Below are positions 11,129-59,965 of a DNA stretch of 64,000 nucleotides, piece after piece. Origin of the DNA: an uncultured Chlorobiaceae bacterium (lineage in GTDB: Bacteria > Bacteroidota > Ignavibacteria > UBA10030 > SZUA-254); NCBI GenBank assembly GCA_964410105.1, contig CAYPFY010000003.1, positions 16,754-80,753 of the forward strand, read 5' to 3'. A program made the translations under genes and the position numbers. How positions within the stretch are numbered: the stretch's first letter is position 1; every line of letters begins with the position of its first letter. The notes beneath the pieces are model-generated. The model made no database searches, had not been told where the DNA came from, and worked only from the letters and a program-made list of their open reading frames with translations.

Positions 11129-11950
11129 TCAGTAGAATTTGTGAAAACCGCTGAAGAACATGTTGATGATGGTCATGGAGAACATCGCGATGGCAAACCC
11201 CATCATCGAGATGACCATGATCCGCCTTCCCTGCCATCCGGCCACTTTTTTCGCTCCAAGCTCGACCCCGTAGATAAGCCAGATCATAGCCGTCCCGATG
11301 AGTTTCGGGTCGGTATAGGGGGATCCCGATACGCTCGGCAGCCAGATCAGCCCGAGGATGATCGCCACCGTCAGGAGTATGAATCCGAAAACCGTCGCAG
11401 TGAAACTCATTCTCTCAAGGATTTCCAGGTTGGGAAGACGCTTGTAGATGACCCCGAACTGGCTCGATTTTATGTCGTGATATAACATCAGGTAGAGGAA
11501 TCCATAGACGGCCGAGATGGTGATCGCGGCATAGCCTAATAGCGCGCTCGTGACATGAAACCCGAGGAGATTATTCCTCAAAATCGGGGGTATTTCCGCC
11601 ACTTCCCGTATAAACAGAGACGAGATGAGCTGGAAGAAAAAAGGGAACATCAGAATGAAATAGCCCGTCGCGCTGTTCTTCGTCCTCATTTCAATGTACG
11701 TGTAAGAGACGGTGACGGTGAAGGCGATCAGCGAAAAGAGTTCAAATACGGATGTGATGGGGGGGTGCCCGAACTGGATCGTCCGGAGCGCTATATACAG
11801 GGCATGGACAAGGACAGTTGTGCGAAGGAGCGGCGTTTTGAGGTTCCCGAAGTACCTGATGCCGCTGAAAAACGATTTCGCGTAAGCCCAGATGGCGGCA
11901 AAATAGAGAAGCGGGAGCAGTACCTCGAACAGGCCGATAAGTGTACGCAT
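11129..11950 (-). CDS. cytochrome c assembly protein family membrane protein (HemX/CcsA-like) located upstream of hemA
   Basis: 273 aa with about 8 predicted transmembrane helices. It carries a Trp-rich WAYAKSFF region. The family and its position next to hemA resemble Bacillus HemX. Confidence 0.65.
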   Translation of the reverse strand: MRTLIGLFEVLLPLLYFAAIWAYAKSFFSGIRYFGNLKTPLLRTTVLVHALYIALRTIQFGHPPITSVFELFSLIAFTVTVSYTYIEMRTKNSATGYFILMFPFFFQLISSLFIREVAEIPPILRNNLLGFHVTSALLGYAAITISAVYGFLYLMLYHDIKSSQFGVIYKRLPNLEILERMSFTATVFGFILLTVAIILGLIWLPSVSGSPYTDPKLIGTAMIWLIYGVELGAKKVAGWQGRRIMVISMMGFAIAMFSMTIINMFFSGFHKFY

Positions 11951-12043
11951 GGAGGCAGAATCTTAACGGAAGATACCTATTCCAGCCGCCATTTTCAAGA
12001 ATTTTAAACGGCTCACGGCTCCTGAATGCGGGCGGAGCTCATC

Positions 12044-12072
12044 TTGCAACTCCACCCCCTCTTTGTTATATT
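12044..12072 (+). promoter_or_regulatory. candidate sigma70-like promoter (TTGCAA-N17-TATATT) 6 nt upstream of the peptidase start
   Basis: TTGCAA at 12044-12049 is followed by a 17-nt spacer and TATATT at 12067-12072, with ATGATG at 12079. No RBS is evident, so the transcript may be short-leadered. The organism may use non-canonical promoters. Confidence 0.3.
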
Positions 12073-12078
12073 GAATTG

Positions 12079-43399: not shown

Positions 43400-45712
43400 T
43401 CACTCCATTCCTAACTTCCTCAAAAACACACCGTAGCGTGTGTCTGAGCGCAGATTTTTGAACCGCGGATCGACCTTGACCCATGGCAAGTGGTCGTCAC
43501 CCTCCTCAATTCCCTTGTTGAGATATTCGAATGCTTTGTCATTATCCCCCGCCCGTGCATACAATACGGAAAGTGTCCAGGGATAGTGGTAGCCCTCCTT
43601 CTCGAGATAAAGCTCGATAGACTTCAGCACAAATCCATTCCAGCCCGAATGTGAGAACGCACGTCGCAGTTCCACTGTGTCAGCAGGACTTGACCAGAAT
43701 TCTGATCCGGCGAGGTAGTGAGAAACGGCTTTGTCATAAAACCCTTTCTGTTCATCAATCAGTCCTGATAGCCAGACCCAGGGTGTGACCTGCAGCTGTT
43801 CAAGGGCAAGATCACTCCGACCTAAATGGAAGTACGAGAGCGCCAACTGCTGACCTAAAAGATTTGACAGCGGATCACGCTGGTAGGCAAGCCTATTCTG
43901 CTTGATCGCCTCCTCGAACCGTCCCATCGCGAGCAGGGCATAAGCGTATTCCATGTAAGACCACGCGTATCCGGGGTTAAGTTCGATGGCCTTTCTGAAT
44001 TCACTCTCGCCATCTGCAAACTTCCAATCGGAAAACACCTTTACATAGCCGAGCGGGCCATGCGCCTCACCGAGGGAACTGTCTATCTCCAGAGCTTTTG
44101 TTGCAGCCGCCCGTATCTTCGGTACTGCCTCCCTCGCGGGCATCAGTTCACCGGAGACTAGAAGGTATGCTTCAGCAAGTCCAACGTACGCTGAGGCATA
44201 TGATGGGTCTATCTCGATTGCCTTTTGGAAAAATTCTACTCCTTTGCTAGATCCGTTTGGCCCCGTGCAATTAATTTCATAGCGACCTTTCAGATAGAAT
44301 TGGTACGCTTCAGTGTTCTCAGTATAACGTCTGGTGAGCTTTTGCCGCTCTTCGCCGGTCAACCTCACCCTCAAATTCTGCAGAATATTGTTCGCAATTT
44401 CCTCTTGAACAGAAAAGATATCGGCAAGCTTTCGGTTGTAGTGATCTCCCCAGATCTGACTCTTGTCATGGGTGTCCACAAGTTCGGTCTTGATTGAAAT
44501 CTCGTCCCCTCGGCTGAGAACTCTGCTCATCAGCACGGCACGGACGCCGTTTAAATCCTTGCTGACTGCCTGCGGGTCAATCAGCCGGTGCTTGTATCCT
44601 ATCACGGAGCTGAACGCCGTCACCCTCACATTGGGCAATCGAGAAAGATTGTCAATGATGCTTTCTGCAACTCCATCGCTGAAGTACTCGAGGGTTGTAT
44701 CCGCGCTCTCATTGACGAACGGCAATACTGCAAGATCGATCCCATAAGAGTGTCGTGGAAATAAGAACAAGCTTATGGCAGCAACCAACACAGCGAGACC
44801 GATTCCCCCAACATATAGGTGACTTCGCTTTACCCGATAGATCATTGCCCTGATCGGATGGAGTTTCAGGGTGGAAGTCTCAAGCTCCGTCGCAATCTTC
44901 TTGAGGTCCGTGATCATATCCTGAATTCGTTGGTATCGATTGCGAGCGTTCCGCTGCATTGCTCTACCGGCAATCCCGACCAATTTCAACGGGACCTCCG
45001 GACGGACCTTTAGAATCGGCACTGGGTCGTCGTGGAGGATCTGGTAGATGATCGCCTGCTCATATTCGCCGGGAAACGGAAGCTTTCCGGTCATCATCTC
45101 ATACATCATGACGCCGAGCGACCAGATGTCGGTCCGCTGATCGACCTCCTCGCCGCGCGCTTGCTCGGGTGACATATATATGACCGTCCCGACAATCGAA
45201 CCGAATTTGGTGAGACGTGTTTGACCGGAGAATCTAGCGATTCCGAAATCGAGAATTTTCACGACGCCATCGCCGGTCACTATGATATTTTGAGGCTTGA
45301 TGTCACGGTGGATGATGCCGGACTGATGCGCCTTTGATAATCCTTGCGAGATCTGAATCCCGATTTCGACGGCTTCCTTTACGTCAAGAGGGCCCCGGGC
45401 GATTTTCTTTGCGAGCGTCTCACCTTCATAGTATGCCATGCTGATGAACAATTGCCCCGGCCCTTCGGGACCATGTTCGGTCTCCCCGATTTCATAGATT
45501 GTGCAGATGTTCGGATGGTCAAGTGCTCGCGCCGCCCGCGCCTCGTGAATGAACCGTTCTCTTGCTTCCGGATCGGCTGTGACGTCTCTCGGCAGAAACT
45601 TCAGCGCAACAGGGCTCTTAAGTCTTGAGTCCTCCGCCTTGTAAACTATGCCCATCCCGGCTTCGCCGAGTTTTTCCACAATCCTATAGTGCGAGATTGT
45701 TGAGCCGATCAT
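43400..45712 (-). CDS. transmembrane Ser/Thr protein kinase with an extracytoplasmic TolB-N-like module and TPR repeats
   Basis: The N-terminal Hanks kinase has GxGxxG-like YRIVEKLGEAGMGIVYKA, catalytic HRDIKPQNII, DFGIA and the activation-loop GTVIYMSPE. A transmembrane helix at about aa 300 is followed by LPFVNESADTTLEYFSDGVAESIIDNLS and then several TPR-like repeats (AYVGLAEAYLL..., EAIKQNRLAYQRDP...). Confidence 0.85.
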   Translation of the reverse strand: MIGSTISHYRIVEKLGEAGMGIVYKAEDSRLKSPVALKFLPRDVTADPEARERFIHEARAARALDHPNICTIYEIGETEHGPEGPGQLFISMAYYEGETLAKKIARGPLDVKEAVEIGIQISQGLSKAHQSGIIHRDIKPQNIIVTGDGVVKILDFGIARFSGQTRLTKFGSIVGTVIYMSPEQARGEEVDQRTDIWSLGVMMYEMMTGKLPFPGEYEQAIIYQILHDDPVPILKVRPEVPLKLVGIAGRAMQRNARNRYQRIQDMITDLKKIATELETSTLKLHPIRAMIYRVKRSHLYVGGIGLAVLVAAISLFLFPRHSYGIDLAVLPFVNESADTTLEYFSDGVAESIIDNLSRLPNVRVTAFSSVIGYKHRLIDPQAVSKDLNGVRAVLMSRVLSRGDEISIKTELVDTHDKSQIWGDHYNRKLADIFSVQEEIANNILQNLRVRLTGEERQKLTRRYTENTEAYQFYLKGRYEINCTGPNGSSKGVEFFQKAIEIDPSYASAYVGLAEAYLLVSGELMPAREAVPKIRAAATKALEIDSSLGEAHGPLGYVKVFSDWKFADGESEFRKAIELNPGYAWSYMEYAYALLAMGRFEEAIKQNRLAYQRDPLSNLLGQQLALSYFHLGRSDLALEQLQVTPWVWLSGLIDEQKGFYDKAVSHYLAGSEFWSSPADTVELRRAFSHSGWNGFVLKSIELYLEKEGYHYPWTLSVLYARAGDNDKAFEYLNKGIEEGDDHLPWVKVDPRFKNLRSDTRYGVFLRKLGME

Positions 45713-46225: not shown

Positions 46226-49147
46226 TTGCATGTTTCTGGCCCATTCGATAAATTGACATCGAAGGTCTCGTTCCCTTCTCACTTTTTCCCTTGGAAAACT
46301 TTGGAAACGCTCGTCGTCAAGGGCGCCCGCGTCCATAATCTGAAAAATATCGACGTGGAGATGCCCCGCGATAAACTGATAGTCATCACGGGCCTCTCCG
46401 GCTCCGGCAAATCGAGTCTTGCGTTCGATACGATTTACGCCGAGGGGCAGAGACGGTATGTCGAAAGCCTCTCCGCGTACGCCCGCCAGTTTCTCGGCCT
46501 CATGGAAAGGCCCGATGTCGATAAAATCGAGGGGTTGAGCCCCGCGATATCGATAGAGCAAAAGTCGGTCTCCCATAACCCCCGCTCCACAGTCGGTACC
46601 GTCACCGAGATCTACGACTACCTGAGACTCCTTTTTGCCCGGGTCGGGATCCAGCATTGTTACAATTGCGGCCGGAGAGTCCAGAGGCAATCAGTCGACC
46701 AGATCATCGATGCCGTCATGTCGTACTCTTCCGGCTCGAAGATCCACATCCTTGCGCCCGTCATCCGGGGGCGAAAAGGCCATTACCGTGAACTTTTTGA
46801 GGAAATCCTTCGGGAAGGCTTCCTTCGCGCGAGGGTCGACGGCGAGATCAGAGAGATTTCGCGGGGGATGCAGGTCGACCGCTATAAGGTGCATAATATC
46901 GAGATCGTCGTGGATCGGCTCTCCGTGAAGGGAGATATGCGCAGCCGCATTGCTGATTCCATCGAAACAGCTCTCCGGATGGGGTCCGGGCTGGTCATCA
47001 TCGACTCCGGAGCCAAGGAACAGCTTTTCAGCCAGCATCTCGCCTGCCTCTACTGCGGGATAAGCTATGATGAGCCCGCTCCGAATTCTTTTTCGTTCAA
47101 TTCGCCCTATGGCTCATGCCCTTCCTGCAGCGGGCTCGGCGAAACAAAGGAGTTCGATCTGGACCTCATCATGCCGAACCGCTCACTTTCCATTAACCAG
47201 GAGGGGCTCGCTCCGCTCGGAAAGCCGCGCGACACATGGCTCTGGCGACAGGTCCGGGCGGTGGCTTCAAGATTCCAGGCGGATCTCGACCAACCCCTTT
47301 CCCAGCTTCCAAAGAACTTTGTCGATGTCCTCATCAAAGGGGGAGGGAATGAAAAATTCGACATTCGTTACACCTACTCGACGGGCCGCATCGCCACGTA
47401 CCGGCAGCGGTTCGAGGGTCTGCTGAAGATGCTGAAGCATTACTACGACCAGACCTCCTCCGAGGGAATCCGGCAATGGGTGGAGTCTTATATGCGCACG
47501 AAAGCCTGTCCCCTGTGCGGGGGAGGACGGTTGCGCCGCGAGAGCCTCGCCGTCCGCCTTGTCGACTCCGAAACCGCCCGTGAAGTCAATATCCGCGATC
47601 TGGTGCAATTCTCAATCCGGGAGGCTTTCGGTTTTTTCTCACAACTGCACCTGAGCGCCCGCCAGATGGAGATCGCCCGGCAGGTTTTGAAGGAAATAAC
47701 GCAGCGGCTCGGTTTTCTCCTCAACGTCGGCCTCGATTACCTCACGCTTGACCGCTCCGCGCGCACCCTTTCCGGAGGAGAAGCGCAGCGCATACGGCTT
47801 GCCACCCAGATCGGCTCACGCCTCGTCGGCGTCCTCTACATCCTCGACGAACCGAGCATCGGACTTCACCAGCGGGATAACGTGAAGCTGATCGACAGCC
47901 TCAAGGAGCTGAGGGATATGGGTAACACGGTCATCGTCGTCGAGCATGACAGGGAGATGATCCGCTCCGCCGATTACCTTGTCGACCTCGGACCCGGCGC
48001 CGGCGAACACGGAGGCCATGTCGTCGCGACAGGGAAACCCTCCCGGCTCCGGATGGGAAAATATGACGGCGCTTCGTCGTCGACTGCCGAATATATAACC
48101 GGGAAGAGAATCATCGAACTTCCCAGGAGCCGGCGGGACGGTTCGGGCAATGTCATTAGGCTCCGGGGTGCCCGGGGGAATAACCTGAAATCGGTGACGC
48201 TCGCGGTCCCCCTGGGAAAATTCGTGTGCATCACGGGGGTGAGCGGCTCGGGGAAATCGACGCTTATTTCAGAAACCCTTTACCGGATTTTGTCCAGAAA
48301 GTTTTATAAGTCAAAAGACGTCCCGCTCCCCTACGGTTCCATTGACGGCCTCGCCTATGTCGACAAGGTGATAGAGATCGACCAGTCCCCCATCGGACGT
48401 ACTCCCCGCTCAAACCCGGCGACTTATACCGGCTTATTCACGTATATCCGGGATCTCTATGCGCAACTTCCCGAGGCGAAGATACGGGGCTATAAGGTGG
48501 GCCGGTTCAGCTTCAACGTGAAGGGGGGACGCTGCGAAGAATGCCAGGGGGACGGAGTCCGGAAAATTGAAATGAATTTCCTGCCCGACGTCTATGTCCT
48601 CTGCGAAGTCTGCAAGGGAAAAAGATATAACAGGGAGACGCTCGAGATTCTGTTCAAATCGAAATCCATCGCAGATGTTTTGAATATGACCGTCGAGGAG
48701 GCCGTCACTTTTTTCAGCGAAATCCCCCGCCTCCGCCGAAAGCTCGAAACCCTGCGAGATGTCGGCCTCGGTTATATCAGGCTCGGCCAGCAGGCAACAA
48801 CCCTCTCCGGCGGGGAAGCCCAGAGGGTCAAACTCTCAACAGAACTCTCCAAGGTGGGGACCGGAAAAACTCTCTATATCCTTGATGAGCCCACGACCGG
48901 GCTTCATTTTGAGGATATCCGGATGCTCCTCTCGGTTCTGAATAAGCTCGTCGATAAGGGAAATACCGTCGTCGTCACCGAGCATAATCTCGACGTGATC
49001 AAGACGGCCGACTGGATCATCGACCTGGGACCGGAAGGGGGGAAGGAGGGGGGTGAAATCATCGCCGAGGGAACTCCAGAAGCGGTTGCCAGGAACCGAC
49101 GCTCCTATACGGGGATGTTTCTGAAGGGGGAATTGAAACTCTCGTAG
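46226..49147 (+). CDS. uvrA: excinuclease ABC subunit A
   Basis: Two ABC ATPase modules are present ([12 protein letters not shown] and [11 protein letters not shown]) with zinc-finger Cys clusters. The probable true start is the in-frame TTG at about 46301 ([31 protein letters not shown]...), matching canonical UvrA N-termini. The 25 residues upstream of it are non-homologous. Confidence 0.9.
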
Positions 49148-49159
49148 GAAATCCCTACC

Positions 49160-50212
49160 TTGCCGAAACCTACCATGGCGGGTTTCTCACAGAAAGATAA
49201 AACACGCCTCATCCCGGTTTTCAAGGCAATCCTGACCGGCGCATACACCCCGCTCGACCTGCGGGAATTCGTCCTTCTTTGTCACGATCTCGCTCTTCCT
49301 TTTCTTCGGAAAAAGATTCATCAGGGCAAGCTTAACCTCGCCTCGATCCGTCTCAATGAACATGATGCGGTCTATGATTGCCTCGCCGACCTTTTCGCAC
49401 GCGATGATCAGGGGAATTTCCAGTCCATCCGTAAGTTTTTCGACGCTCAGCTTCCCGATTGGGAATCCGGCGATGCCGATGGCCTCATCGTCACCCTCCG
49501 CCATCTCGTCTTCGCCAAGATTAATAACGGCATCATCAGGCTTTATTCCGAGGCGGATCCCGCGCTCGGAAAAATTCTCAGGAACATGAAGAAAGCGCTG
49601 GAAACCAGGTCACTGTTCGAGCAGACGACGAGATTCGGCGATGTCTTCCTCGTCCCTGCCGGAGCCGACCCGCTCTTTCATCTGCCCCCCCTGGCACCAG
49701 ATCAGATCCAGCGTGCCTTCTCTCTCGCCGTTCTTTTGCACGACAATGTCCCGACGATGCTCTCCAAACTCCGGTCCGTCCTCATCGACCAGAACGATTG
49801 CCAGAGATCGGTACTTATGATGACCGCAGCCCTGATGTTCAAGGAAATCTATGAGTTGGGCGGGGAGGAGGCGTCCCAACCCAACGTTGCTGAGGAACGC
49901 CTGGAGAGAGAGCGTCTGGGCAAAATTATCACAAAAATTCGGGGGGAAATGTGGGCCGAACTGCATCCAGGCTATGTCGGGAAGGGGAAGTGCAGCGAGG
50001 AGATTTTTGCAAAATACCTGGACGCCATGGATGATATACTCCAGGGGTTTCTCGCCGATGATAATCCGGACGGATTTACTTTTTACGAGCATCTGAGGGC
50101 AAAAATGCCCGAGCTCACTCCCGGGGAGTACAGGAAAAATCACCGGATCACGCTTGAATATTTTGCCAAGGTCGGCCGGGAACGCATCCGAAAGGAACTG
50201 AAATCTGAGTGA
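49160..50212 (+). CDS. hypothetical protein (no recognisable domain), first gene of the FG-GAP/anti-sigma-like module
   Basis: 350 aa, predicted soluble and helical. It starts 13 nt after uvrA. No sigma-70 region 2 or region 4 signature could be identified by eye. Confidence 0.5.
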   Translation: MPKPTMAGFSQKDKTRLIPVFKAILTGAYTPLDLREFVLLCHDLALPFLRKKIHQGKLNLASIRLNEHDAVYDCLADLFARDDQGNFQSIRKFFDAQLPDWESGDADGLIVTLRHLVFAKINNGIIRLYSEADPALGKILRNMKKALETRSLFEQTTRFGDVFLVPAGADPLFHLPPLAPDQIQRAFSLAVLLHDNVPTMLSKLRSVLIDQNDCQRSVLMMTAALMFKEIYELGGEEASQPNVAEERLERERLGKIITKIRGEMWAELHPGYVGKGKCSEEIFAKYLDAMDDILQGFLADDNPDGFTFYEHLRAKMPELTPGEYRKNHRITLEYFAKVGRERIRKELKSE

Positions 50213-50256
50213 TCTCCGTTGCCATTGTCACCGGTTAGTTTACTGATAAAGCGCAT

Positions 50257-51633
50257 ATGAAGCATATCGAAGAAAAGATACTGGAGCGTTATGTCCTCAG
50301 GGCGGACGGGGGGACGGACCCCGCGATTGAGGCGCATCTGAAGGAATGCCCCGGTTGCGACGCGCTGAGGCAACAGATCAAGTCCTATTACGACGAATTC
50401 TCCGAAATCCGCCGCGAGCGGACTGTGGAAAACCCGGAGGCGATCACGCTCAGGAATATGCGCGTCGCGCCTTTTGAAACATTGCGCATGCCTGTCACGC
50501 TTCCGGCCCGCGTCGTTCTGTTCGCCATCCGCCATCCCGCTTACTCCGTCATGAGCCTTGCCGCGGCCATCGTTCTTGCGCTCGTGCTTCTCTACCCCGG
50601 CAAGGCGCCCAAGGATCTGAATCCTTCGTATGCGCGCCCGAAGGATGAATTCCTCGTCGTCTATAACAAGGACGGCGAAGAGCTCTGGCGTAAACATGTC
50701 GAGAAGGGGTGGGACATCGAACTTGCCAAATGGCCGCTGAACCGCCGATCGATTTTTACCGCCGACGCGGACGGCGATGGAAAGAACGAAGTTTTCTGCA
50801 TCTATGGCGGCATCTACGATAATCCGACTCTGAATGCCGTGTTCTGCTACAACCCGGACGGCTCAGAGCGGTGGAAGTATCAGTATCATCGGAATATCAG
50901 TTTTGGGTCGGAATCTTTCGTCGATAACTACTTCTTTAACTCGATGGTCGTCGGCGATTTTGACCGGGACGGTCACCTCGATATTATTGCCGAGCTGGAA
51001 CATGCCAAGCGCTATCCCAACGTGATCATCCGTCTGGACGCAAAAACGGGCGATTTTCTGGGAGAGTTCTGGCACCCGGGGAATGTCGAGTACATGGCCC
51101 ACAGGGATATCGACGGCGACGGCGTCGAGGAGATTTTCCTGACAAGTTCCAACGCGTTCGCCGGCGCCGCACCCCTCCTCGTGCTTGATCCGCGTGCGAT
51201 CAAGGGGGTGGCCCCCGTTCCGCCCGAATTCGCTCCCCCGGGAGTTCCGCAGGGTCTTGAAAAATACTATCTCCTCTTCCCTCGGAGCGGCCTGGAAAAA
51301 TCAAAAGATTTTCTCTCTACCGCGGGCGAGGTGATGTACTTCAAGTCCGACGGGACTCTTGAACTGATCGTATCCGATCACTTCAAAAACGGAACGTCTT
51401 TTGCGCTCAATTTTTACCTCGATTCGACGATGCGCTGCACGAAGGTGCTCGCCACCGAGCCGAATCTGCAATACGCGCGCAGGCTCCAGTCCGAGGAGCT
51501 GACGCTCCGGAAGATCACCGAGAGCATCCTGGACTCGCTCCGGACGTCGATTCAGTATTGGGATGGGGAAAAATTTGTGAACGAGCCGACGATGAATAAG
51601 TACTATAAGTCGGCCCTTAAACCCCTGCCATGA
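50257..51633 (+). CDS. anti-sigma-factor-like membrane protein: N-terminal zf-HC2 zinc finger, one transmembrane helix, and an extracytoplasmic FG-GAP-repeat domain
   Basis: The N-terminus ILERYVLRADGGTDPAIEAHLKECPGCDALRQQI has the H-x3-C-x2-C motif of zf-HC2 anti-sigma factors. The transmembrane helix is VVLFAIRHPAYSVMSLAAAIVLALVLLY. The ectodomain has FG-GAP-type Ca-binding repeats (DADGDGKNE, GDFDRDGHLDII, DIDGDGVEEIF). Confidence 0.65.
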   Translation: MKHIEEKILERYVLRADGGTDPAIEAHLKECPGCDALRQQIKSYYDEFSEIRRERTVENPEAITLRNMRVAPFETLRMPVTLPARVVLFAIRHPAYSVMSLAAAIVLALVLLYPGKAPKDLNPSYARPKDEFLVVYNKDGEELWRKHVEKGWDIELAKWPLNRRSIFTADADGDGKNEVFCIYGGIYDNPTLNAVFCYNPDGSERWKYQYHRNISFGSESFVDNYFFNSMVVGDFDRDGHLDIIAELEHAKRYPNVIIRLDAKTGDFLGEFWHPGNVEYMAHRDIDGDGVEEIFLTSSNAFAGAAPLLVLDPRAIKGVAPVPPEFAPPGVPQGLEKYYLLFPRSGLEKSKDFLSTAGEVMYFKSDGTLELIVSDHFKNGTSFALNFYLDSTMRCTKVLATEPNLQYARRLQSEELTLRKITESILDSLRTSIQYWDGEKFVNEPTMNKYYKSALKPLP

Positions 51634-53084
51634 AGACGGCCGTGGCTGTCTTTCTTGTCCTGGCGTGGATCACCCCTTCCGAGGCCCTCCATGTGAAAAA
51701 AGTCTCGCCCGGCCAGAACGCGCTCAATGTCCAAAAAAATTCCCGGATCGCTGTGACGTTTGATGATCCAATCACTCCCGCGGCTGCCGCCGGACAGACA
51801 ATACGCGTGGTCGGGAGTCTCAGCGGGTTTCACCTCAACAACTGGGTCGCTTATGACGCAGCCACCCGAACCCTTACGATCAGCGCGCGGTCGCCTTTTG
51901 CGGTCGGCGAGGTGGTGACCGTTATTCTGACGACGGGTCTGACAGATTCATCCGGCACTCCCATGCTGCGGCCTTTTGTGTGGAGCTTTACGATTCGAGC
52001 TGAACGGGGGACGGGCACCTTTGCCGAGACGCAACGCGTCCCGGTCGGCTCCGAGATAAATTCGGTTGCCGCATGCGATCTGGACTCCGACGGCGCCCTC
52101 GACCTTGTCAGCTCCAACGGCCGGGGTAGCAGCATCTCCACTCTCAGGAACGACGGACACGGCTCGTTCACCCTCCATCAGACTGTCGAGACCGGCATGA
52201 ATACGCTCGACGCTTTCCCCATCGATATCGACGCCGATGGATTTGCGGACGTCGCGGCAGTTCACTGGAATGCCAGCGATCTCTATATACTTCACAACGA
52301 CGGCCACGGTAACCTGACGACCCGGTCACGGATCGAACCCGGCTACATACCGTACGATGTCGCCATCGCGGATTTCAACGGCGACGGAAACCTCGATATA
52401 GCTCTCCCCAATCAATGGGGGAACGACGTTGCGGTGCTCACGAATGACGGCACCGGGTCTTTCACGAAATCCCAGGCGCTCCCCTCCGGGGTGATGCCCA
52501 GCGCCATCTGCGTAGGGGATTTCGATAACGACGGGGATATCGACTTTGCAGTCGTCAATTTCAGTCTCAACAATGTGACGATTTTCACCAACGATGGAAA
52601 AGGGATTTTTAGCGAAGCGTCCTCGGTTGATGTGGGGAGCAACCCGCTATCGATTGCGGCCGGCGATTTCGACGGGGACGGTTTTCTGGACCTCGCCGTT
52701 GTGAATCACAATATGGTGAGCGTCTCGATCTTGAAAAACGACGGCACGGGACACTTCCGCCATTCACAGACTTTTTTTACCAAGGGGAGGCCATTCTGGG
52801 TCGTCTGCGGGGACTTTGACGCCGACGGCGACCTCGACCTCGCCGTGTCGATATTTTCCCCCGGCGGTGTTACAATTCTCCGGAATGACGGTCACGGGAA
52901 TTTCATCTCTGGAGGCACTATACCGACAAGCCCCATGAATCTGCGCCTCGCCTGCGGCGACTGGAACGGTGACGGGGCTCTCGACATCGCAGTCGCCAAT
53001 AGAAACCCAAACGGCGTCCTCGTTCTCACAAACCAAAAATCGAAACCCCGCCAGGAATCCCTAAAACAGTCCGGTTTCCGCTGA
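51630..53084 (+). CDS. secreted protein: SbsA-type Ig-like (Big_5) domain followed by a 7-bladed FG-GAP beta-propeller
   Basis: Signal peptide MKTAVAVFLVLAWITPSEA. The Ig-like domain begins VSPGQNALNVQKNSRIAVTFDDPITPAA. Seven repeats follow, of the pattern D-x-D-x-D-G-x-x-D (CDLDSDGALDLV, IDIDADGFADVA, ADFNGDGNLDIA, GDFDNDGDIDFA, GDFDGDGFLDLA, GDFDADGDLDLA, GDWNGDGALDIA). The start overlaps the stop of the upstream gene (ATGA). Confidence 0.75.
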   Translation: MKTAVAVFLVLAWITPSEALHVKKVSPGQNALNVQKNSRIAVTFDDPITPAAAAGQTIRVVGSLSGFHLNNWVAYDAATRTLTISARSPFAVGEVVTVILTTGLTDSSGTPMLRPFVWSFTIRAERGTGTFAETQRVPVGSEINSVAACDLDSDGALDLVSSNGRGSSISTLRNDGHGSFTLHQTVETGMNTLDAFPIDIDADGFADVAAVHWNASDLYILHNDGHGNLTTRSRIEPGYIPYDVAIADFNGDGNLDIALPNQWGNDVAVLTNDGTGSFTKSQALPSGVMPSAICVGDFDNDGDIDFAVVNFSLNNVTIFTNDGKGIFSEASSVDVGSNPLSIAAGDFDGDGFLDLAVVNHNMVSVSILKNDGTGHFRHSQTFFTKGRPFWVVCGDFDADGDLDLAVSIFSPGGVTILRNDGHGNFISGGTIPTSPMNLRLACGDWNGDGALDIAVANRNPNGVLVLTNQKSKPRQESLKQSGFR

Positions 53085-53373
53085 TTCACCGGCGGTAGAC
53101 TTAAGGAACACCCCCCTGCAAAGAATTTTTTTTTGAAAATTCTCTGCAACCCTCCCCAACTGCCTGTATAAGGTACTAGAAGCGGTTACAGATTGACCGA
53201 TCACTCCTCTCGGAATATGGATCAGGGAGTAGAGGAGATGGGGAGAGGCAGATTAAATGCTGCCCTCCTCTCTATCCCCAAAGGGCTTGCGATCTCACCG
53301 CGCTAGGGGCCCGAATCGCATCAGGATTTTACAGGTGCGAATCACCGTACGTTTCTTCATAGGAGGGTTTTCC

Positions 53374-56300
53374 ATGTACAGTTGCGTCCGTATGTTCCTG
53401 CTCGCTTCCATTCTGCCCACCCTTGCTCTGTCACAAAATCCGACGACCAGCTGGCAACCGGTATTTCCCTATCCGACCGGGGGCGATCTGTATGCCATCA
53501 CGAGCGTCGGGGGTGTCCTGACGGCCGTCGGTACCGGGGGAACCATGGTAACCTCTTCCGACGGAGGGCAGACATGGCGGCTTCACCCGTATGTGGGCGG
53601 AACCACTGAAACATTCAAAGCCCTCGCCTACAAGTACCTTTCGAAAACGGTGCCGCCCCTGCAGAATTTCCCCACTGCGATTGCAGTCGGTACCAATGGA
53701 ACGATCGTGCGGACGACAAACGGCGGCACCTCGTGGTCGAAAGCCACCAGCGGCTCAACCCGTAATCTCTATGGAATCTCATTCAACGGAATTGATAATC
53801 CGGTGAACGGTACCGGCGGTGCAGTCGCGGTCGGGGATTCGGGGACGATTCTCTACAGCTCGAATTCGGGCAGCAGCTGGAATTCCATCTCGTCTCCGAC
53901 TTCTTCGAGGATCGTAGGGGTTTCGTTCAGCCCCGTCATAGCCGGACTAGGAATTGCCTCCGCTGCTAACGGAGACCTTCTTCGGACGAAGAACGGCGGG
54001 ACCAGCTGGACGCCCCTGGGAAATTTCCCTATTTCGCCGCGGCAGGTTAGATTCATTGACACTGCCAAAGTCATAGTTCTTGACAACGTCTCATTCTTCA
54101 TTAGCTCGGATAGCGGTTCGAACTGGTCACAGAATTTTATCTCCAACAGCGATTCCCTTGTGAAGAATTTTCAATGTTTCGCGGCCTGGAATAAAGACAC
54201 TATTCTTGTGGGATCCGAATACCGTCTCTGGCGAACGACCGAGAATTTCGGGTCGGGCTGGCACCTCTGGCCTCCCCGCGGACAGACTGAGCGTGACATA
54301 CTCTATTACGGGCTCGTTTTCGTAAACAATACTACGGCGATAGCGGTGGGGTATGGAGGAGTCATCGCGAGGACCACAAATGCCGGCGACGACTGGACAA
54401 CGGTGGCATACGGGGCGTCGGGCTCGTATAAATCGGTCTCGTTCAGTGACGAAAAGCACGGATGGGTGGTCGGCGAGAATTCCGCAATCGTCCGGACCAC
54501 AAACGGCGGCCAGAGCTGGGCCGCGCTCTCCGGCTATCCCTGGAGCAACGTCCACGAGGACCAATTTCACGGATACCGCGGCGTTCATTTCATCAATAAC
54601 GATACCGGGTGGGTCGTCGGCGATTTGGGAAAGATTCTGCGAACATACGACGGCGGCGTTTCATGGGCGGACAGGAACACCGGGTCGTCTTCCAATAACG
54701 CCGTGCATTTCTTCAATGCCGAGACGGGTATCGTTGTGGGCACGGGCGGTTTCTACGGACAGGTAAATTACCCCAACGATGTCCCCGGAATATACCGTAC
54801 AACCAACGGAGGCGACACGTGGGCAATCCAGGAGAGTCTCTTTACGCCGGGCACCCGTGGCCATCTCTATAACATGTGCTTCGTCGACGCCAATCATGGC
54901 TGGGCCGTAGGAGATACAGGCTCCTATCCTTCGTTTGTGCCTGGCATCGCCCAGACCACCGACGGCGGCTTGTCGTGGACGGATAGCCTCCTACCGTTCG
55001 CGGGTTCGTTTAAGGGGATCTTCTTCAGGGATATTTCCCACGGCTGGGCCGTGGGGATGAAAGGGATATATCCCTCCGCGCAACCGCTGATCCTCCAGAC
55101 GACAAACGGCGGCACGAGCTGGTCCGAGGAAACAGGACACCCATACTTTTCCTCAGCTCTGAATGCCTCGTTCGAAAATGTCTTCTTTATCAGTTCGGCA
55201 GTCGGTTTTGTGGTCGGTTCGTCCCGTATCGACCCGGCCATCAATCCTTACGTGCCCGTCCCCGCGTTCGGTGCGCTGGCGTTCACGACGAACGGCGGAT
55301 TGTCCTGGAGCAGGGATACATCGTCCGCAGCCTATCTCAAGGACATAAGTTTCGCTCAGATCCCGGGATTTGGCTTTGTGGGATTCTCGGTGGTAGCCGG
55401 CATTTATTGCTCGGCCACGATTGTCGGTCCAGTGCAGACGGATACGTGGACGGGAGCCGTCGATAGCAATTGGAATAACGGGGCAAACTGGAGCCTCGGG
55501 ATCGCTCCCCTCAAATTTCATCATGTTCTGATTAGCCCTAACTCCATTCATCCCGACCCGGTCATATTTCACCGGCAGGATATTGTTGCCATAGCAAGCC
55601 TGTATCTCGCCGACACATTAACAGTGAGGGATTCTGTAAGGCAGTTTGTTGTGAAAGGGCCGGTGACGCGTCAGGCTGGCGGATATATCAACGCGAAGGG
55701 AACACACGGTAACTATCTGTTCGGAGGAGGGTTCATTGTCATCCCGGGCTTTCTCTCGAACGCATCCGGATCCTCGTCCGTCAGCGCCGTCGCCGGATCC
55801 TTCATCGATCTTGGGAACTCGAGCGCCTCATTCAGGGGAACGGGGGACGTTTTCGGAAACTACTATGACCTGATATTCGATTCCTCGTCGGTCATGAGAT
55901 CGGCCGGCGGAATATCCGTGGAGAACACTCTCACCGTTCTCAAGAGGCTTGATGTCAACGACAACGATACTGTCGAGGTTACAAATGCCGATCCGCAGTC
56001 GATCCAGGGGGACGGAAAAGTTGAGGGGGGCACAATAAGCCGGAAAATTCAGGTCGACGCATCAGACCAATACCGCTTCGAGAGTTCCGGTTCATTTGTC
56101 CGGTTCGACGTCGGGTCGACGTACCCGGATCTGATGGACATGACCGTCAAGGCAGGATCAACGCCCCGGGCCTTCGAGTTGAACTGGGAACCCGTCCCCG
56201 TAAGCCAGCGAAGCGTCACAGACCACACGATCCGTGCATATCCCGTTCAACAGTCCACGAAGTACGTCATCGGGATCCCGGGCTCATCTCTGGCCCTCAG

Positions 56301-57633
56301 GAAGACGGGCAGTATACTCTACGATCCCAATTTCAAGCCGAAAGTGAAACGGATCTATTCGGTCAGGGCCCGGGGCGGCGGAGGGGGAGGGCTAGGGAAG
56401 ACCGGAGCGTCGCCTGAGAACCGGTTCCAGGCAGAACTTTCTCTCAGGTATGAACCCTCCGAAGTCGATTCGGCCGTCGTCGAGGATTCTCTTGTTCTCG
56501 CCCGCGGACCCGTCGCCGTGGATTCTGTCGTGGACGGCTGGAATATGGTCGCGCTCCCCGTGGTGCCGGAGAATACCACCAAGGACACCGTCTTCCCGGG
56601 GGCGATTTCCAGGGCGTACAACTACAACGGCTCGTACCAGATACAGACAACCCTTGCGCCTCAGACGGGCTACTGGCTGAAATATCCGTCAAGACGGGCG
56701 ATCGCGATTCTCGGGAACGACCAGGAGACTGCACCCGTCATCGTCAAAAAAGGATGGAATCTGATCGGTGCTCTCAGCTACGCTGTCAGCGCATCCACCG
56801 TCATCCCCTCCTCGCCCGGCCTGCTGGCGAGTCAGTTCTTCGGCTACAGCCGGGGATACAAACCCGCGGCCACACTGAGCGCGATGCGGGCTTACTGGAT
56901 AAAGGCGAACGCCGACGGGTCGATTTTCCTCGATGCCAATGCGGTCGCCTCGGCAAAAACAGTTTCTCCTCTCGCAGCATTGAACGACCTGAATGCGCTT
57001 ACAATTTCCGACAACTCGGGCACCGGGCATGAAATCTACTTTGGAGGAAACGTCGATCCGGCGCAGTTCGAGTTGCCGCCGCTGCCTCCTGAGGGGGTCT
57101 GCGATGTCCGGCTCTCGACCAACCGGATGGTCGAAGTTGCCGATCGGAAGAATGAGAAGGTAGTCCCCATAAAAATTACCTCGGCGCTTTATCCCGTGAC
57201 GATCCGATGGCAAATCAAGGATGAGAGCTACACCGGCGCTATCCGGGTGGGAGGAGTTTCCCGGCCGCTTCACGGCACGGGAAGCGTGACGGTCGATGAT
57301 CCGTCGTCCGCGATATTGCTCGTGCTTTCGCCGGTTCCGCGCCGCGAAATACCCGTCGAATTTGCCCTCCGGCAGAACTTTCCGAACCCGTTCAATCCGA
57401 GCACCACAATCCGCTACGAGCTTCCAGAGGGTGGCAGGGTGGCTTTGCGGATCTATAACATACTCGGGCAACTCGTCGCGACCCCCATCGACGAGGTGCA
57501 ACCTTCCGGGTTTAAATCCGTAGTATGGAATAGTGGAGGGTCGGCGAGCGGGGTTTATTTCTACCGGCTCGAGGTAACGACCAATAACAAGAATGTTTTT
57601 CTGAGCACGATGAAGATGGTCCTCCTAAGGTAA
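53374..57633 (+). CDS. giant (about 1,420 aa) secreted multi-propeller BNR/Ycf48-like repeat protein with a T9SS C-terminal sorting domain
   Basis: The Met is preceded by the RBS AGGAGGG. A signal peptide is present. At least 12 Asp-box repeats occur (SSDGGQTW, TTNGGTSW, SSNSGSSW, TKNGGTSW, TTNAGDDW, TTNGGQSW, TYDGGVSW, TTNGGDTW, TTDGGLSW ...). A middle region of about 650 aa has no recognised family. The C-terminus FPNPFNPSTTIRYELPEGGRVALRIYNILGQLV...VYFYRLEV matches the Por/T9SS C-terminal domain consensus. Confidence 0.8.
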   Translation: MYSCVRMFLLASILPTLALSQNPTTSWQPVFPYPTGGDLYAITSVGGVLTAVGTGGTMVTSSDGGQTWRLHPYVGGTTETFKALAYKYLSKTVPPLQNFPTAIAVGTNGTIVRTTNGGTSWSKATSGSTRNLYGISFNGIDNPVNGTGGAVAVGDSGTILYSSNSGSSWNSISSPTSSRIVGVSFSPVIAGLGIASAANGDLLRTKNGGTSWTPLGNFPISPRQVRFIDTAKVIVLDNVSFFISSDSGSNWSQNFISNSDSLVKNFQCFAAWNKDTILVGSEYRLWRTTENFGSGWHLWPPRGQTERDILYYGLVFVNNTTAIAVGYGGVIARTTNAGDDWTTVAYGASGSYKSVSFSDEKHGWVVGENSAIVRTTNGGQSWAALSGYPWSNVHEDQFHGYRGVHFINNDTGWVVGDLGKILRTYDGGVSWADRNTGSSSNNAVHFFNAETGIVVGTGGFYGQVNYPNDVPGIYRTTNGGDTWAIQESLFTPGTRGHLYNMCFVDANHGWAVGDTGSYPSFVPGIAQTTDGGLSWTDSLLPFAGSFKGIFFRDISHGWAVGMKGIYPSAQPLILQTTNGGTSWSEETGHPYFSSALNASFENVFFISSAVGFVVGSSRIDPAINPYVPVPAFGALAFTTNGGLSWSRDTSSAAYLKDISFAQIPGFGFVGFSVVAGIYCSATIVGPVQTDTWTGAVDSNWNNGANWSLGIAPLKFHHVLISPNSIHPDPVIFHRQDIVAIASLYLADTLTVRDSVRQFVVKGPVTRQAGGYINAKGTHGNYLFGGGFIVIPGFLSNASGSSSVSAVAGSFIDLGNSSASFRGTGDVFGNYYDLIFDSSSVMRSAGGISVENTLTVLKRLDVNDNDTVEVTNADPQSIQGDGKVEGGTISRKIQVDASDQYRFESSGSFVRFDVGSTYPDLMDMTVKAGSTPRAFELNWEPVPVSQRSVTDHTIRAYPVQQSTKYVIGIPGSSLALRKTGSILYDPNFKPKVKRIYSVRARGGGGGGLGKTGASPENRFQAELSLRYEPSEVDSAVVEDSLVLARGPVAVDSVVDGWNMVALPVVPENTTKDTVFPGAISRAYNYNGSYQIQTTLAPQTGYWLKYPSRRAIAILGNDQETAPVIVKKGWNLIGALSYAVSASTVIPSSPGLLASQFFGYSRGYKPAATLSAMRAYWIKANADGSIFLDANAVASAKTVSPLAALNDLNALTISDNSGTGHEIYFGGNVDPAQFELPPLPPEGVCDVRLSTNRMVEVADRKNEKVVPIKITSALYPVTIRWQIKDESYTGAIRVGGVSRPLHGTGSVTVDDPSSAILLVLSPVPRREIPVEFALRQNFPNPFNPSTTIRYELPEGGRVALRIYNILGQLVATPIDEVQPSGFKSVVWNSGGSASGVYFYRLEVTTNNKNVFLSTMKMVLLR

Positions 57634-57751: not shown

Positions 57752-58339
57752 CTACGGCCTTGAAACGAACCGGCTTCCCTTGACGTGGAATCGCCACGGC
57801 TTTTCTGCACCTTTGCGTATCCCGATCCGGCGTGTGCGCCCGATTCGCGAGCTCGCGATTTTCGCCCCTCTTCCGATGTAAATCTCGCTCCCGGTCAAGT
57901 CGATTCCGTTCTCCTTGCGCCCGATCGCAAGGGCCTGACACAACCTGGCGGGGCCGCTCGTTAACTTGGTGTCATCCTCGACACCTCCCCTGTTCTTCAC
58001 CATGGTTGACATTCCCCTCAAAGGCTCGAGCGCCCGCAGGAGGATTGCTCGTCCCTTCCCCCGCCTTTCCGTCACGACATTCGAACAAAAATGCATCCCG
58101 TATGTAAAATAGACATAGAGGTGGCCTCCCTCCAGGAACATGACCTCGTTCCGCTTCGTTTTTCCCCGGTAAGCGTGACTCGCTGGGTCTATTTCCCCCA
58201 GGTAGGCTTCTACCTCGACAATTCTTCCCGCCAGAGTTTTCTTCCCGAGCTTGCGTACGAGAAGTTTTCCGAGTAAATCTTTTGCGACAGTGAGTGTAGG
58301 GCGGAGATAAAAGGAGCGGGGGAGCTTTTCGTGATGCAT
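57752..58339 (-). CDS. DNA-3-methyladenine glycosylase (MPG/AAG family)
   Basis: 195 aa. The protein contains LPRSFYLRPTLTVAKDLLGKLLV and GEIDPASHAYRGKTKRNEVMFLEGGHLYVYFTYGMHFC, which are the MPG-family signatures. Confidence 0.85.
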   Translation of the reverse strand: MHHEKLPRSFYLRPTLTVAKDLLGKLLVRKLGKKTLAGRIVEVEAYLGEIDPASHAYRGKTKRNEVMFLEGGHLYVYFTYGMHFCSNVVTERRGKGRAILLRALEPLRGMSTMVKNRGGVEDDTKLTSGPARLCQALAIGRKENGIDLTGSEIYIGRGAKIASSRIGRTRRIGIRKGAEKPWRFHVKGSRFVSRP

Positions 58340-58357: not shown

Positions 58358-59965
58358 TTAGCGCTTTGTGAAGTCCTTGATGATTTTATCGACCTCCTCC
58401 TCCGAGATGCCGGTGCCGAGCTTAGAGCTGGATTTGGCCGCTGGCGGCGGCGGCACGGCGTCCGATTTTTTGGGCGCATTGCTCGCCTTCAGCCGGATTC
58501 TTTCGTCGATCTCCTCCATCCACGATTTTCCACCTTTTGCCGGTGTTTCCCGCTGTGCCGGCGGCCCCGGTGCGGGAGCGCTCCGCACTTCCTGGGGAGC
58601 GTCAGGCGGATTGATCGGACGTGTCTCGAAGGCCAGCCTTTTGACGTTGAACATGTGCTTGGCCGAAACGTTCTCTGAAATAATCGATCCGCCAAATGTC
58701 CCCGGCCCGAGCGTCATCGACGGCAGGAGCTCATTTGTGTACCCGACAGCGCCGAGCGCCGCCTGCGTATTGACGAGGACCCTGAAGGCCGGCTTTTCAA
58801 GCGCGAATTTCATGATGATATCCTCGTCCATCGAGTGGATCACCATCGTATGCCCGATCCCGCCGAATTCAAGGAGCTCGACGCAGCGTTCGCAACCCTC
58901 GCGCCAGTTTTCAACCGTGTAAAAAGAAAGGACGGGCGAAAGCTTTTCACGCGAGAGGGGGTGAGATCTTCCCACCTCCTGAAGTTCCGCGATCAATACC
59001 TGCGTATCTCCGGGGACGCTGATCCCAGCGTTCTGGGCGATGAATGTCGCCGGCTTTCCCACCATGTTCGGGTTGATGGCCCCTCGGGAATCAAACATGA
59101 GCCGTCCCAGTTTTTCCTTGTCGTCTCCTTCCACGAAGTGACATTTGCGGCGTTTGAGTTCCTCGACGACGACGGTTTTTACGGATGAATCGACGACGAC
59201 CGATGCCTCGGTCGAACAGAGGACCCCGAGGTCGAAGATTTTTCCGGAAACGACGTCCGCAACCGCTTTGCGGAGATTTGCGGTTTTTTCAATGTAGGCC
59301 GGCACATTTCCCGACCCCACCCCGTAGGCGGGCTTACCGGAGCTGTACGCGGAACGGACCATGGGATTGCTTCCCGTGGCAAGGATGATCGAGACGAGCT
59401 TGTGTTTCATCAGTTCGTTCGTGGCCTCAATCGTCGGGTTCGAGAGGCAGGACATCAGCCCCTGGGGGGCCCCGGCGGCCCCCGCTGCCTGGGCGATGCA
59501 ATTCATCGCCTCGACCGTGCACCGTGCAGCCCGGGGATGGGGACTGGCAACAATGGCGTTTCGTCCTTTGACGGAGATGATTGCCTTGAACATGACGGTC
59601 GAGGTCGGGTTCGTGGAAGGGATGAGGGCCGCGACCACTCCCATCGGCTCTGCAATCTCGATGATCTTTTTCTCCCTGTCTTCCCGGATGACGCCGACCG
59701 ACCGGAGGTCTTTGATCGATTCCCACACGCGTCGCGTCGCAAATTCGTTTTTCTTCCTCTTGTCCTCGGATTTGCCGAATCCCGTCTCCTCGTGGGCCAT
59801 CCGGCCGAGACGCTCCGCCGCTTCAAACCCCGCATCGGCCATGGCCTTCACGATCCTGTCAACGCGCACCTGGTCGTAGGCGCGGAATTCTCCCTGCGCC
59901 TGCTTCGCCTTCTGGACGAGATCGCGCATTTCCTGTATGGATTGAAGATCCTTGTCAAGCGCCAT
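58358..59965 (-). CDS. CoA-acylating aldehyde dehydrogenase, EutE/PduP family, with a C-terminal extension of about 95 aa
   Basis: About 440 aa align to the EutE/PduP architecture. The catalytic Cys lies in GVLCSTEASVV. The N-terminus MALDKDLQSIQEMRDLVQKAKQAQGEF is like EutE. After the domain ends (…NVKRLAFETRP), a Pro-rich linker (INPPDAPQEVRSAPAPGPPAQRETP) precedes two short amphipathic helical segments, SWMEEIDERIRLKA and GISEEEVDKIIKDFTKR. Confidence 0.75.
   Translation of the reverse strand: MALDKDLQSIQEMRDLVQKAKQAQGEFRAYDQVRVDRIVKAMADAGFEAAERLGRMAHEETGFGKSEDKRKKNEFATRRVWESIKDLRSVGVIREDREKKIIEIAEPMGVVAALIPSTNPTSTVMFKAIISVKGRNAIVASPHPRAARCTVEAMNCIAQAAGAAGAPQGLMSCLSNPTIEATNELMKHKLVSIILATGSNPMVRSAYSSGKPAYGVGSGNVPAYIEKTANLRKAVADVVSGKIFDLGVLCSTEASVVVDSSVKTVVVEELKRRKCHFVEGDDKEKLGRLMFDSRGAINPNMVGKPATFIAQNAGISVPGDTQVLIAELQEVGRSHPLSREKLSPVLSFYTVENWREGCERCVELLEFGGIGHTMVIHSMDEDIIMKFALEKPAFRVLVNTQAALGAVGYTNELLPSMTLGPGTFGGSIISENVSAKHMFNVKRLAFETRPINPPDAPQEVRSAPAPGPPAQRETPAKGGKSWMEEIDERIRLKASNAPKKSDAVPPPPAAKSSSKLGTGISEEEVDKIIKDFTKR

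Follow-up and report, generated by a model that had tools for sequence, protein, structure and literature searches.

A conserved gene pair encoding a putative, very divergent sigma-like protein and a membrane anti-sigma-type protein, with a promoter-like motif before neighbouring type IX secretion cargo genes

Extracytoplasmic function (ECF)-type sigma/anti-sigma pairs are a major bacterial signalling mechanism. Within a 64,000-nucleotide stretch of DNA from an uncultured Chlorobiaceae bacterium (hereafter the window), four co-directional genes, which we call g1 to g4, raise the question of what an anti-sigma-type membrane protein (g2) is paired with when the gene before it, g1, does not encode a recognisable sigma factor. 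The initial annotation, made from the sequence letters, proposed a four-gene envelope-sensing module lying between uvrA and a DNA-glycosylase gene, with a secreted protein (g3) and a giant protein exported via a type IX secretion system (T9SS; g4) as further members, and left g1 as either a non-sigma partner or a very divergent regulator. All four open reading frames (ORFs) are present in that arrangement (Table 1), and the conserved core is g1 plus g2, not four genes. We consider it somewhat probable that g1 and g2 form a transmembrane pair of a very divergent sigma-like/anti-sigma type, and that this pair controls genes for secreted proteins in its neighbourhood. The pairing, together with a shared motif described below, points to an undescribed signalling route in bacteria of the Ignavibacteria/Bacteroidota group.

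The g1-g2 pair and its membrane member

A one-genome-per-species scan with a 42-sequence g1 alignment returned 122 relatives, and 80 loci were analysed, from Ignavibacteriota, Bacteroidota (including Chitinophagales), Rhodothermales, Balneolaceae and metagenome-assembled genomes (MAGs) labelled Chlorobiaceae. A homologue of the g2 ectodomain lies just downstream of g1 on the same strand in 64 of the 80 loci, placing a cognate anti-sigma-type gene next to g1 as is expected of ECF systems; in most of the other 16, the contig ends too soon to judge. In all five metagenome or genome contexts with unrelated flanks, the gene after g1 is likewise a g2 homologue, of 466-507 aa. These homologues typically start 0-230 nt past g1, have an H-x3-C-x2-C motif at residues ~29-45 and a hydropathy peak near residue 105, and two to four pairs are found in several genomes. 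Canonical ECF sigma genes number four in ~1 Mb of loci and none in the window, and neither in the window nor in any locus is one the adjacent partner of g2. The pairing is thus the part of the proposed four-gene module that holds, g3 and g4 not being fixed members. Full-text literature searches on anti-sigma factors with FG-GAP/VCBS repeats, or on sigma/anti-sigma factors with T9SS and Ignavibacteria, gave no account of the g1-g2 family, and we found no description of the g1 family or of its pairing with g2 under any database name, in any Pfam family or in any located paper.

Some loci depart from this layout. A small gene lies between g1 and g2 in two loci (L036:9094-9471 and L053:5377-5787), and between them or directly after g1 in a third (L081:9032-9454). 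These inserts split the pair without removing g2, and seem to be mobile insertions. By eye, the three products resemble PD-(D/E)XK/DUF559-type endonucleases. In three Rhodothermales/Balneolaceae loci (L065:9043-9843, L073:9284-9571 and L076:4711-4941), the product of the gene after g1 is short; its N-terminus (...IE+Y+R.P..LS...) is g2-like by eye, and it has no His/Cys ligands, membrane helix or FG-GAP domain. This partner looks like a soluble zinc-less variant, matching the mixture of zinc and non-zinc forms found within class I anti-sigma groups (PMC7406223).

Judged by its sequence, g2 itself is a single-pass membrane protein with a cytoplasmic zinc-type class I anti-sigma signature and an FG-GAP/VCBS outer part. 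It had been annotated with a zf-HC2 N-terminus, one transmembrane helix and an FG-GAP ectodomain. The N-terminal motif, H27-x3-C31-x2-C34, is indeed present and strongly conserved, with H3 as an extra invariant His: H3, H27, C31 and C34 are the only invariant residues of the N-terminal 70 in 30 diverse g2 homologues, which therefore carry the full four-ligand set, as in zinc anti-sigma factors. The upstream His stands 24-26 residues ahead of H-x3-C-x2-C in almost all loci. Where the zf-HC2 assignment falls short is in the Pfam match (PF13490), whose score of 15.9 bits (E=0.015) does not reach the 22.2-bit threshold. When a profile of the g2 N-terminal family was searched against 177,635 PDB sequences, the two best matches, both with weak scores, were RslA, the anti-SigL factor of M. 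tuberculosis (3hug_B, E=0.003), and RsiW of B. subtilis (5wuq_C, E=0.04).

The membrane helix (residues ~96-113) and the FG-GAP ectodomain were both recovered. FG-GAP_3 has one match in g2, at residues 170-244 (E=5.5e-10), and PF13517 (FG-GAP/VCBS) is found in most g2 homologues; as this is the single stretch of the ectodomain above threshold, a complete propeller is not confirmed. One locus (L071:4574-7015) encodes an 813-aa g2 with the ectodomain in two tandem copies. In a Candidatus Zhuqueibacter locus (L068), two overlapping ORFs (9067-9939 and 9936-12308) encode a 290-aa protein with an anti-sigma-like N-terminus and a 790-aa protein bearing the ectodomain, which may be a frameshift or a real split.

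The g1 family and its predicted fold

Relatives of g1 are numerous and uniform in length. A word-indexed search gave 65, all ~340 aa, unnamed and from Ignavibacteria or Bacteroidota MAGs. By exhaustive profile search, 1341 cluster representatives were found at E<=1e-3, of which 587 reach E<=1e-30; these too are ~340 aa throughout, and the family comprises at least 1341 clusters at 50% identity. An AlphaFold2 model of full-length g1, built on the 42-sequence alignment, is nearly all-helical, with a predicted local distance difference test score (pLDDT) of 88.8 and a predicted template modelling score (pTM) of 0.55; residues 1-150 predicted alone reach a pLDDT of 93.9 and a pTM of 0.84. The predicted N-terminal domain aligns with sigma-2 structures at 2.4-3.2 A, over 94/106 residues for region 2 of sigmaE, 83/88 for SigC and 76/80 for the SigE N-domain, and designed bundles and lambda Q drop off the structural match list once the model of this domain alone is used. 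On these models, the N-terminal domain of g1 (residues ~1-147) likely has a sigma-2 fold. The most conserved stretch of the family, E-A-D-P-x-L-G-K-I-L-R-N at residues 126-137, falls at the end of this sigma-2-like domain, and the C-terminal ~200 residues are helical and match generic helical proteins only.

A series of results weighs against a sigma-type identity for g1. No Pfam or NCBIfam model matches it even at E<=10, a Pfam scan of 132 family members at E<=10 found no sigma family, sigma-2 (PF04542) included, and the sigma-4 models PF04545 and PF08281 match neither g1 nor the family members. A hidden Markov model (HMM) search of g1 against the PDB had no sigma factor among its matches; hhalign comparison with ECF profiles, namely E. 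coli RpoE and an alignment of five ECF sequences, gave P of ~0.03-0.3 across the whole-length and single-domain runs, and the g1 C-terminal profile gave P = 0.08 against sigma-4. A Foldseek search of the N-terminal domain against the PDB returned nothing significant (best E-value 2.7, no sigma factor), and the sigma-2 fold belongs to a predicted, not a solved, structure. Neither a sigma-4 nor a helix-turn-helix domain is demonstrable in the C-terminal region, and no helix-turn-helix or other DNA-binding family was detected in g1 as a whole. That g1 binds RNA polymerase and contacts g2 are steps that we infer.

The description of g1 as lacking recognisable sigma-70 regions 2 or 4 is therefore accurate at the level of Pfam. 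HMM searches found nothing, and the structural comparisons divided, the predicted sigma-2 fold speaking for a sigma relationship and the Foldseek result against it. With its conserved pairing and predicted fold, g1 is a candidate for the very divergent regulator that the initial annotation had allowed for, and not an unrelated enzyme.

A promoter-like motif before g2 and T9SS cargo genes

A bipartite, strand-specific motif, TTTCnGCA-N12-TG-N5-A, stands directly before g2 in many loci and before downstream cargo genes. This motif is new, being absent from the earlier proposal. In the 350 nt after g2 stops, the k-mers TTCTGCA and TCGGCAA occur far above shuffled expectation, and alignment of the sites gave the bipartite pattern. 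A position weight matrix (PWM) built from 14 sites downstream of g2 only finds 26 independent sites in the 120 nt before g2 starts (7.4 kb), as against 68 in the remaining 2.08 Mb, both strands counted, which is an enrichment of ~107-fold before g2 (Poisson p = 4e-40). Several of the 68 directly follow g1 in loci without an assigned g2 start. The logo of 51 sites reads T-T-T-C-n-G-C-A-(a/c), 12 free positions, then T-G-(c/t)-a-a-(g/c)-(G/T)-A-(t)-(a)-(a/t).

The position of the motif is consistent with a promoter. In 14 of 20 loci, the end of the 44-nt motif span lies 0+-3 nt from the ATG of g2. Taking the conserved A as position -11, within a -10-like element, would put the start of transcription at or within ~2 nt of the g2 start codon, so that the g2 mRNA would probably be leaderless or nearly so in motif-bearing loci. 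Downstream of g2, the motif lies 26-66 nt ahead of the next ORF in most loci, with a range of 26 to 193 nt for cargo genes. The median 5' untranslated region (UTR) in this lineage is 24-32 nt, and distances of 26-66 nt correspond to its ordinary 5' UTR lengths (PMC9723704). The motif is unlike the TAnnTTTG housekeeping box (PMC9723704). A sigma-54 promoter was considered and rejected: the two blocks are 16 nt apart (G10 to G26) instead of about 10-11, there is no GG, and the base before GCA is not conserved (A20/C4/G10/T17; the sigma-54 type is TGGCAC-N5-TTGCA).

The two GCA-like blocks also suit a different reader. In motif sequence, nGCA(A/C) and TG(C/T)AA are similar elements, and g1 has a large non-sigma C-terminal part, as would be expected if g1 were an ordinary DNA-binding activator, sequestered by g2, that binds two GCA-containing half sites 16 nt apart next to a normal promoter. 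We regard this as unlikely, given that no DNA-binding family, helix-turn-helix or other, was detected in g1, that the motif abuts the g2 start in many loci and so leaves no space for a separate downstream promoter, and that no TAnnTTTG-type housekeeping box is conserved inside it. Zinc-type anti-sigma domains, moreover, partner with sigma-2/sigma-4 surfaces (PMC7406223).

The gene for g1 itself appears to be expressed differently. The motif was not found upstream of g1, where TAnnTTTG-like boxes (TATATCTT/TATATTTT) are seen by eye and the k-mers TATCTT and TGTATAT are enriched: TGTATAT(T/C)TT-type boxes lie ~20-40 nt before g1 (e.g. L039, L077, L078, L083 and L063), and TATCTT occurs in 16 loci against 3.9 expected. 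As TAnnTTTG is the housekeeping -7 element of Bacteroidota (PMC9723704), these boxes suggest that g1 is transcribed by the housekeeping sigma and is not auto-regulated.

Variation among motif copies bears on who reads them. Thirteen loci have one site close to g2 and another close to the cargo gene. Between the two sites of a locus, the variable positions next to the conserved blocks agree at 0.54, compared with 0.40 when loci are permuted (p = 0.0009), and this agreement is absent at the spacer and tail positions. Such within-locus agreement fits a reader encoded by the locus, for which g1 is the sole cytoplasmic candidate. Set against this is the possibility that g1 is a PhyR-type sigma mimic or decoy that titrates the anti-sigma domain of g2 from a canonical ECF sigma encoded elsewhere, which would then read the motif. 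The sigma-2-like predicted fold of g1, with no detectable sigma-4 and no sigma sequence signature, would suit a mimic, and the motif core is the same across paralogous loci and phyla, as for one common reader. A single shared sigma would not account for the co-variation, however; no canonical sigma is conserved nearby (the four in ~1 Mb are never adjacent), g1 has no receiver or other input domain, and its ~200 well-conserved extra residues would be superfluous in a decoy. We therefore think a mimic improbable.

Several observations count against a locus-specific promoter read by g1. In the window, the g1-g2 spacer has no motif, its best PWM score of -7.5 being like that of random windows, and the one site found there, before g4, is among the PWM seeds. 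The core motif is identical in paralogous loci of one genome, which permits cross-talk or a single shared reader, and we infer promoter function from position only.

The single motif copy of the 64-kb window reads AAATTCTCTGCAA-N12-TG-CCTG-TATAAG, with GCA at 53146-53148, TG at 53161-53162 and TATAAG at 53167-53172. The g4 ATG follows 193 nt further on, and the transcription start of g4 is predicted at ~53179. The closest genome relative (L011) has the same layout, g1, g2 and a g3-like gene followed by the motif. In the window, g1, g2 and g3 are read as a single transcript because the spacer between g1 and g2 is 44 nt long and lacks the motif, and g4 is probably on a separate one given the 290-nt gap after g3. 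Thus g1-g2-g3 probably form one transcription unit, with g4 separately controlled from its own motif-bearing promoter. A generic scan of the region for sigma-70 promoters and terminators gave counts not above shuffled expectation.

Just after g3 lies an inverted repeat, GCAAAGAATTTT-TTTTTG-AAAATTCTCTGC, whose 3' arm overlaps the upstream element of the motif. The hairpin appears on RNA folding of the 116-nt region, whose z-score is only -1.87. The repeat may terminate g3, or may belong to the regulatory site or be an additional upstream element. A T-run and then GAAAAATTTTC likewise precede many other cargo-proximal sites. In L054, a ~50-nt stretch containing TCGGCAA occurs twice, 200 nt apart, downstream of g2 (~10740-10790 and ~10940-10990), and is a local duplication of the regulatory region. 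The overlap with a hairpin in the window, the strand-specificity of the motif and its place beside start codons would all fit an RNA element, that is, a leader or intercistronic signal for translation or stability, with g1-g2 having no direct role in initiation. Initiation in Bacteroidota is not based on the Shine-Dalgarno sequence, so other leader signals are plausible. We nevertheless rate an RNA element very unlikely. The motif matches no Rfam family at E<=1, it has no conserved pairing potential and consists of two short blocks with a fixed-length spacer of free sequence, as is typical of promoters, and at cargo genes its distance to the next ORF varies as 5' UTRs do.

The genes that follow the motif are rich in T9SS cargo. 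Using a profile iterated from the g4 tail to detect sorting domains in the loci, we counted 35 genes with such a domain in the 3-kb stretches after g2 (162 kb in total) and 6 in 403 kb upstream of g1, a 14-fold higher density after g2 (p = 7e-14), and 11 of 22 genes after downstream motif sites carry one, compared with 44 of 2572 ORFs overall. Their make-up varies by locus (Kelch, BNR, FG-GAP or unassigned), and g4-like BNR proteins are found downstream in few loci, g4 itself not being conserved. The conserved neighbour is thus a class, a T9SS-sorted protein of variable make-up, of which g4 is the local example.

The description of g4 as a protein of about 1,420 aa with at least 12 BNR/Ycf48-like repeats and a T9SS domain was borne out in all its parts. 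It has 1419 aa and 13 S/T-x-D/N-x-G-x-x-W (BNR/Ycf48-type) motifs at residues ~61-645, matches PSII_BNR/Ycf48 (1.2e-27) and Sortilin-Vps10, and has a long unmatched middle region. Its T9SS type A sorting domain scores 32.9 bits with TIGR04183 (cut-off 23; residues 1375-1445 of the 1458-codon ORF), and Pfam PF18962 gives 24.7 bits, just under its cut-off of 27. The g4 ORF opens at 53257; its likely start is the ATG preceded by AGGAGG, which is also the start called in the public assembly.

The secreted protein g3 likewise has the predicted parts, namely a signal peptide, a Big_5 Ig-like domain (E=1.5e-14) and seven FG-GAP_3 stretches (E=1.9e-54) in Pfam, so that seven FG-GAP-type repeats are found; it has no T9SS sorting domain. 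The g2 stop overlaps the g3 start as ATGA (...GCCATGAAG...), confirming the overlap seen initially. A general pairing of membrane sensor and secreted FG-GAP co-receptor did not survive comparison: a g3-like FG-GAP protein follows g2 in three loci only (L011, L043 and L080), which rules out g3 as a conserved co-receptor of g2. From this distribution, g3 appears to be a lineage-specific passenger outside the conserved core.

Table 1. Positions of the g1-g4 genes, their domains, intergenic elements and flanking genes in the window
Feature	Position	Strand	Description
uvrA	46226-49147	+	5' flank
g1	49175..50212	+	ATG start as used by gene callers, 345 aa; cytoplasmic protein
g1-g2 spacer	50213..50256	+	44 nt
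g2	50257..51633	+	458 aa; single-pass membrane anti-sigma-type protein
g2 zinc-type anti-sigma domain	residues 1-~90	+	cytoplasmic; candidate ligands H3, H27, C31, C34
g2 candidate ligand codons	50263-50265 and 50335-50360	+	
g2 transmembrane helix	residues ~96-113, DNA ~50542-50595	+	hydrophobic helix
g2 extracytoplasmic FG-GAP/VCBS-repeat domain	residues ~120-458	+	FG-GAP_3
g3	51630..53084	+	Sec-exported Big_5 Ig-like + 7-repeat FG-GAP propeller protein; ATGA overlap with g2 at 51630-51633
A+T-rich inverted repeat	53118..53147	+	after g3; sequence
promoter-like bipartite motif	53137..53180	+	k-mer enrichment, PWM scans, logo
g4	53374..57633	+	1419 aa, secreted; likely ATG start
g4 T9SS sorting domain	last ~85 residues, DNA ~57379-57630	+	TIGR04183
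methylpurine-DNA glycosylase gene	57752-58339	-	3' flank

The g1 ORF, which starts 27 nt after the end of uvrA, can alternatively be read from a TTG at 49160. None of the four proteins matched the anti-phage defence models of PADLOC. Just upstream of uvrA, the window encodes a 770-aa Hanks-type Ser/Thr kinase with C-terminal TPR repeats (43400-45712, minus strand); in another locus (L005), a Ser/Thr kinase is likewise encoded a few kb upstream of g1, probably by coincidence. Beyond the glycosylase gene, a 535-aa ORF (58358-59965, minus strand) has an aldehyde dehydrogenase family match over residues 12-280 only (E=1.3e-25), its C-terminal half being unmatched.

Proposed mechanism and relation to known systems

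Starting from the observed pairing, the anti-sigma signature of g2 and the position, enrichment and co-variation of the motif, we propose that the cytoplasmic domain of g2 would hold g1 at the membrane, and that an extracytoplasmic cue, of whatever nature, sensed by the FG-GAP domain would release it, perhaps, on the model of ECF systems, by regulated proteolysis of g2. Free g1, by means of its sigma-2-like N-terminal domain and a novel C-terminal region replacing sigma-4, would then direct RNA polymerase to promoters bearing the motif, or help to do so. Expression of adjacent cargo genes (g4 in the window) would rise, and in many loci that of g2 as well, giving negative feedback. Two features of the loci counted for such a sigma-like/anti-sigma pair, namely the several paralogous pairs per genome, as with ECF and SigI systems, and the scarcity of canonical ECF sigma genes near the pairs. 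A non-regulatory use of the adjacency, with g1 serving for example as a cytoplasmic assembly or quality-control factor for g2 and the cargo, would sit well with a g1 of no recognised family and an FG-GAP ectodomain of no known function. It is highly improbable in our view, as it leaves the invariant anti-sigma zinc signature, the sigma-2-like fold and the shared, co-varying motif unexplained.

A bolder form of the sigma-like/anti-sigma proposal, which we put forward tentatively and hold to be less than probable, makes g1 a new class of promoter-specificity factor, derived from sigma-70 but with a sigma-2-like module only and a new C-terminal domain that reads TTTCnGCA. A zinc-type membrane anti-sigma whose sensor is a propeller would gate each of its paralogues, and together they would form a control layer over T9SS-secreted surface proteins across Ignavibacteriota, Bacteroidota and Rhodothermota.

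Families of the g1 type are invisible to surveys that use sigma-2 and sigma-4 HMMs (PMC7826278). A class I anti-sigma gene neighbours only ~6% of the ECF sigmas of Bacteroidota (PMC7406223); in the loci analysed here, class I-type anti-sigma proteins are numerous and have a partner that cannot be recognised as a sigma. Should g1 bind RNA polymerase, the known range of sigma architectures would be extended, with g1 joining SigI and phage gp55 among factors of sigma-2-only or sigma-2-plus-other type. If our reading is true, the pair would be the first candidate for a regulator that acts on T9SS cargo genes locus by locus, and the motif offers a concrete promoter candidate that is testable in cultured relatives. 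Among the loci are relatives from MAGs that bear the names Ignavibacterium album (L019), Melioribacter roseus (L023) and Chitinophaga pinensis (L083).

Among known systems, ECF sigma/zinc anti-sigma pairs come nearest, as does SigI/RsgI in its logic. As in ECF sigma factors with class I zinc anti-sigma factors (SigW/RsiW, SigL/RslA and SigE/ChrR), a regulator is followed by a single-pass anti-sigma-type protein, which likewise carries His...His-x3-Cys-x2-Cys in an N-terminal cytoplasmic domain of ~90 aa. Also in common are the sigma-2-like domain, here predicted, the many paralogous pairs per genome and a dedicated bipartite promoter-like motif, in many loci also before the anti-sigma gene. 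To our knowledge, the motif is unlike any known ECF consensus (GGAAC-N16-17-CGT type). It precedes g2 and not g1, so that, unlike in ECF systems, the sigma-like gene is apparently not auto-regulated. In contrast to ECF sigmas, g1 (345 aa) matches no sigma-70 family model, has no detectable sigma-4 and is ~150 residues longer. Since ECF classification requires Pfam matches to sigma-2 as well as sigma-4 (PMC7826278), g1 would be excluded from it, and because these sequence-based tests of membership failed we do not file g1 as an ECF sigma.

SigI combines a sigma-2 domain with a C-terminal domain other than canonical sigma-4 (PMC6582324, PMC7826278), and the SigI/RsgI systems of cellulolytic clostridia resemble g1-g2 in having a sigma-2-like domain with a non-canonical C-terminal region, multiple paralogous pairs, a membrane anti-sigma with an extracellular sensing domain, and secreted or surface proteins as targets. 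The inhibitory domain of RsgI is a beta-barrel that binds only SigI-C (PMC6582324), whereas g2 has the sequence signature of a helical zinc-type anti-sigma domain, and the C-terminal region of g1 has no shown similarity to SigI-C. The phyla (Firmicutes versus the Fibrobacteres-Chlorobi-Bacteroidetes group) and the secretion routes (Sec/cellulosome versus T9SS) differ as well. The PhyR-NepR-EcfG system is further away: the sigma-like domain of PhyR can be recognised from its sequence and is joined to a receiver domain, which g1 does not have, and NepR is small and soluble and has no zinc motif, whereas g2 is a membrane protein. PorXY-SigP of Porphyromonas gingivalis likewise links a sigma-type regulator to T9SS-related genes in the Bacteroidota lineage (PMC7712824). 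SigP, however, is a canonical ECF sigma that controls genes of the secretion machinery via a two-component system, whereas g1 is unrecognisable as a sigma and has cargo genes for neighbours.

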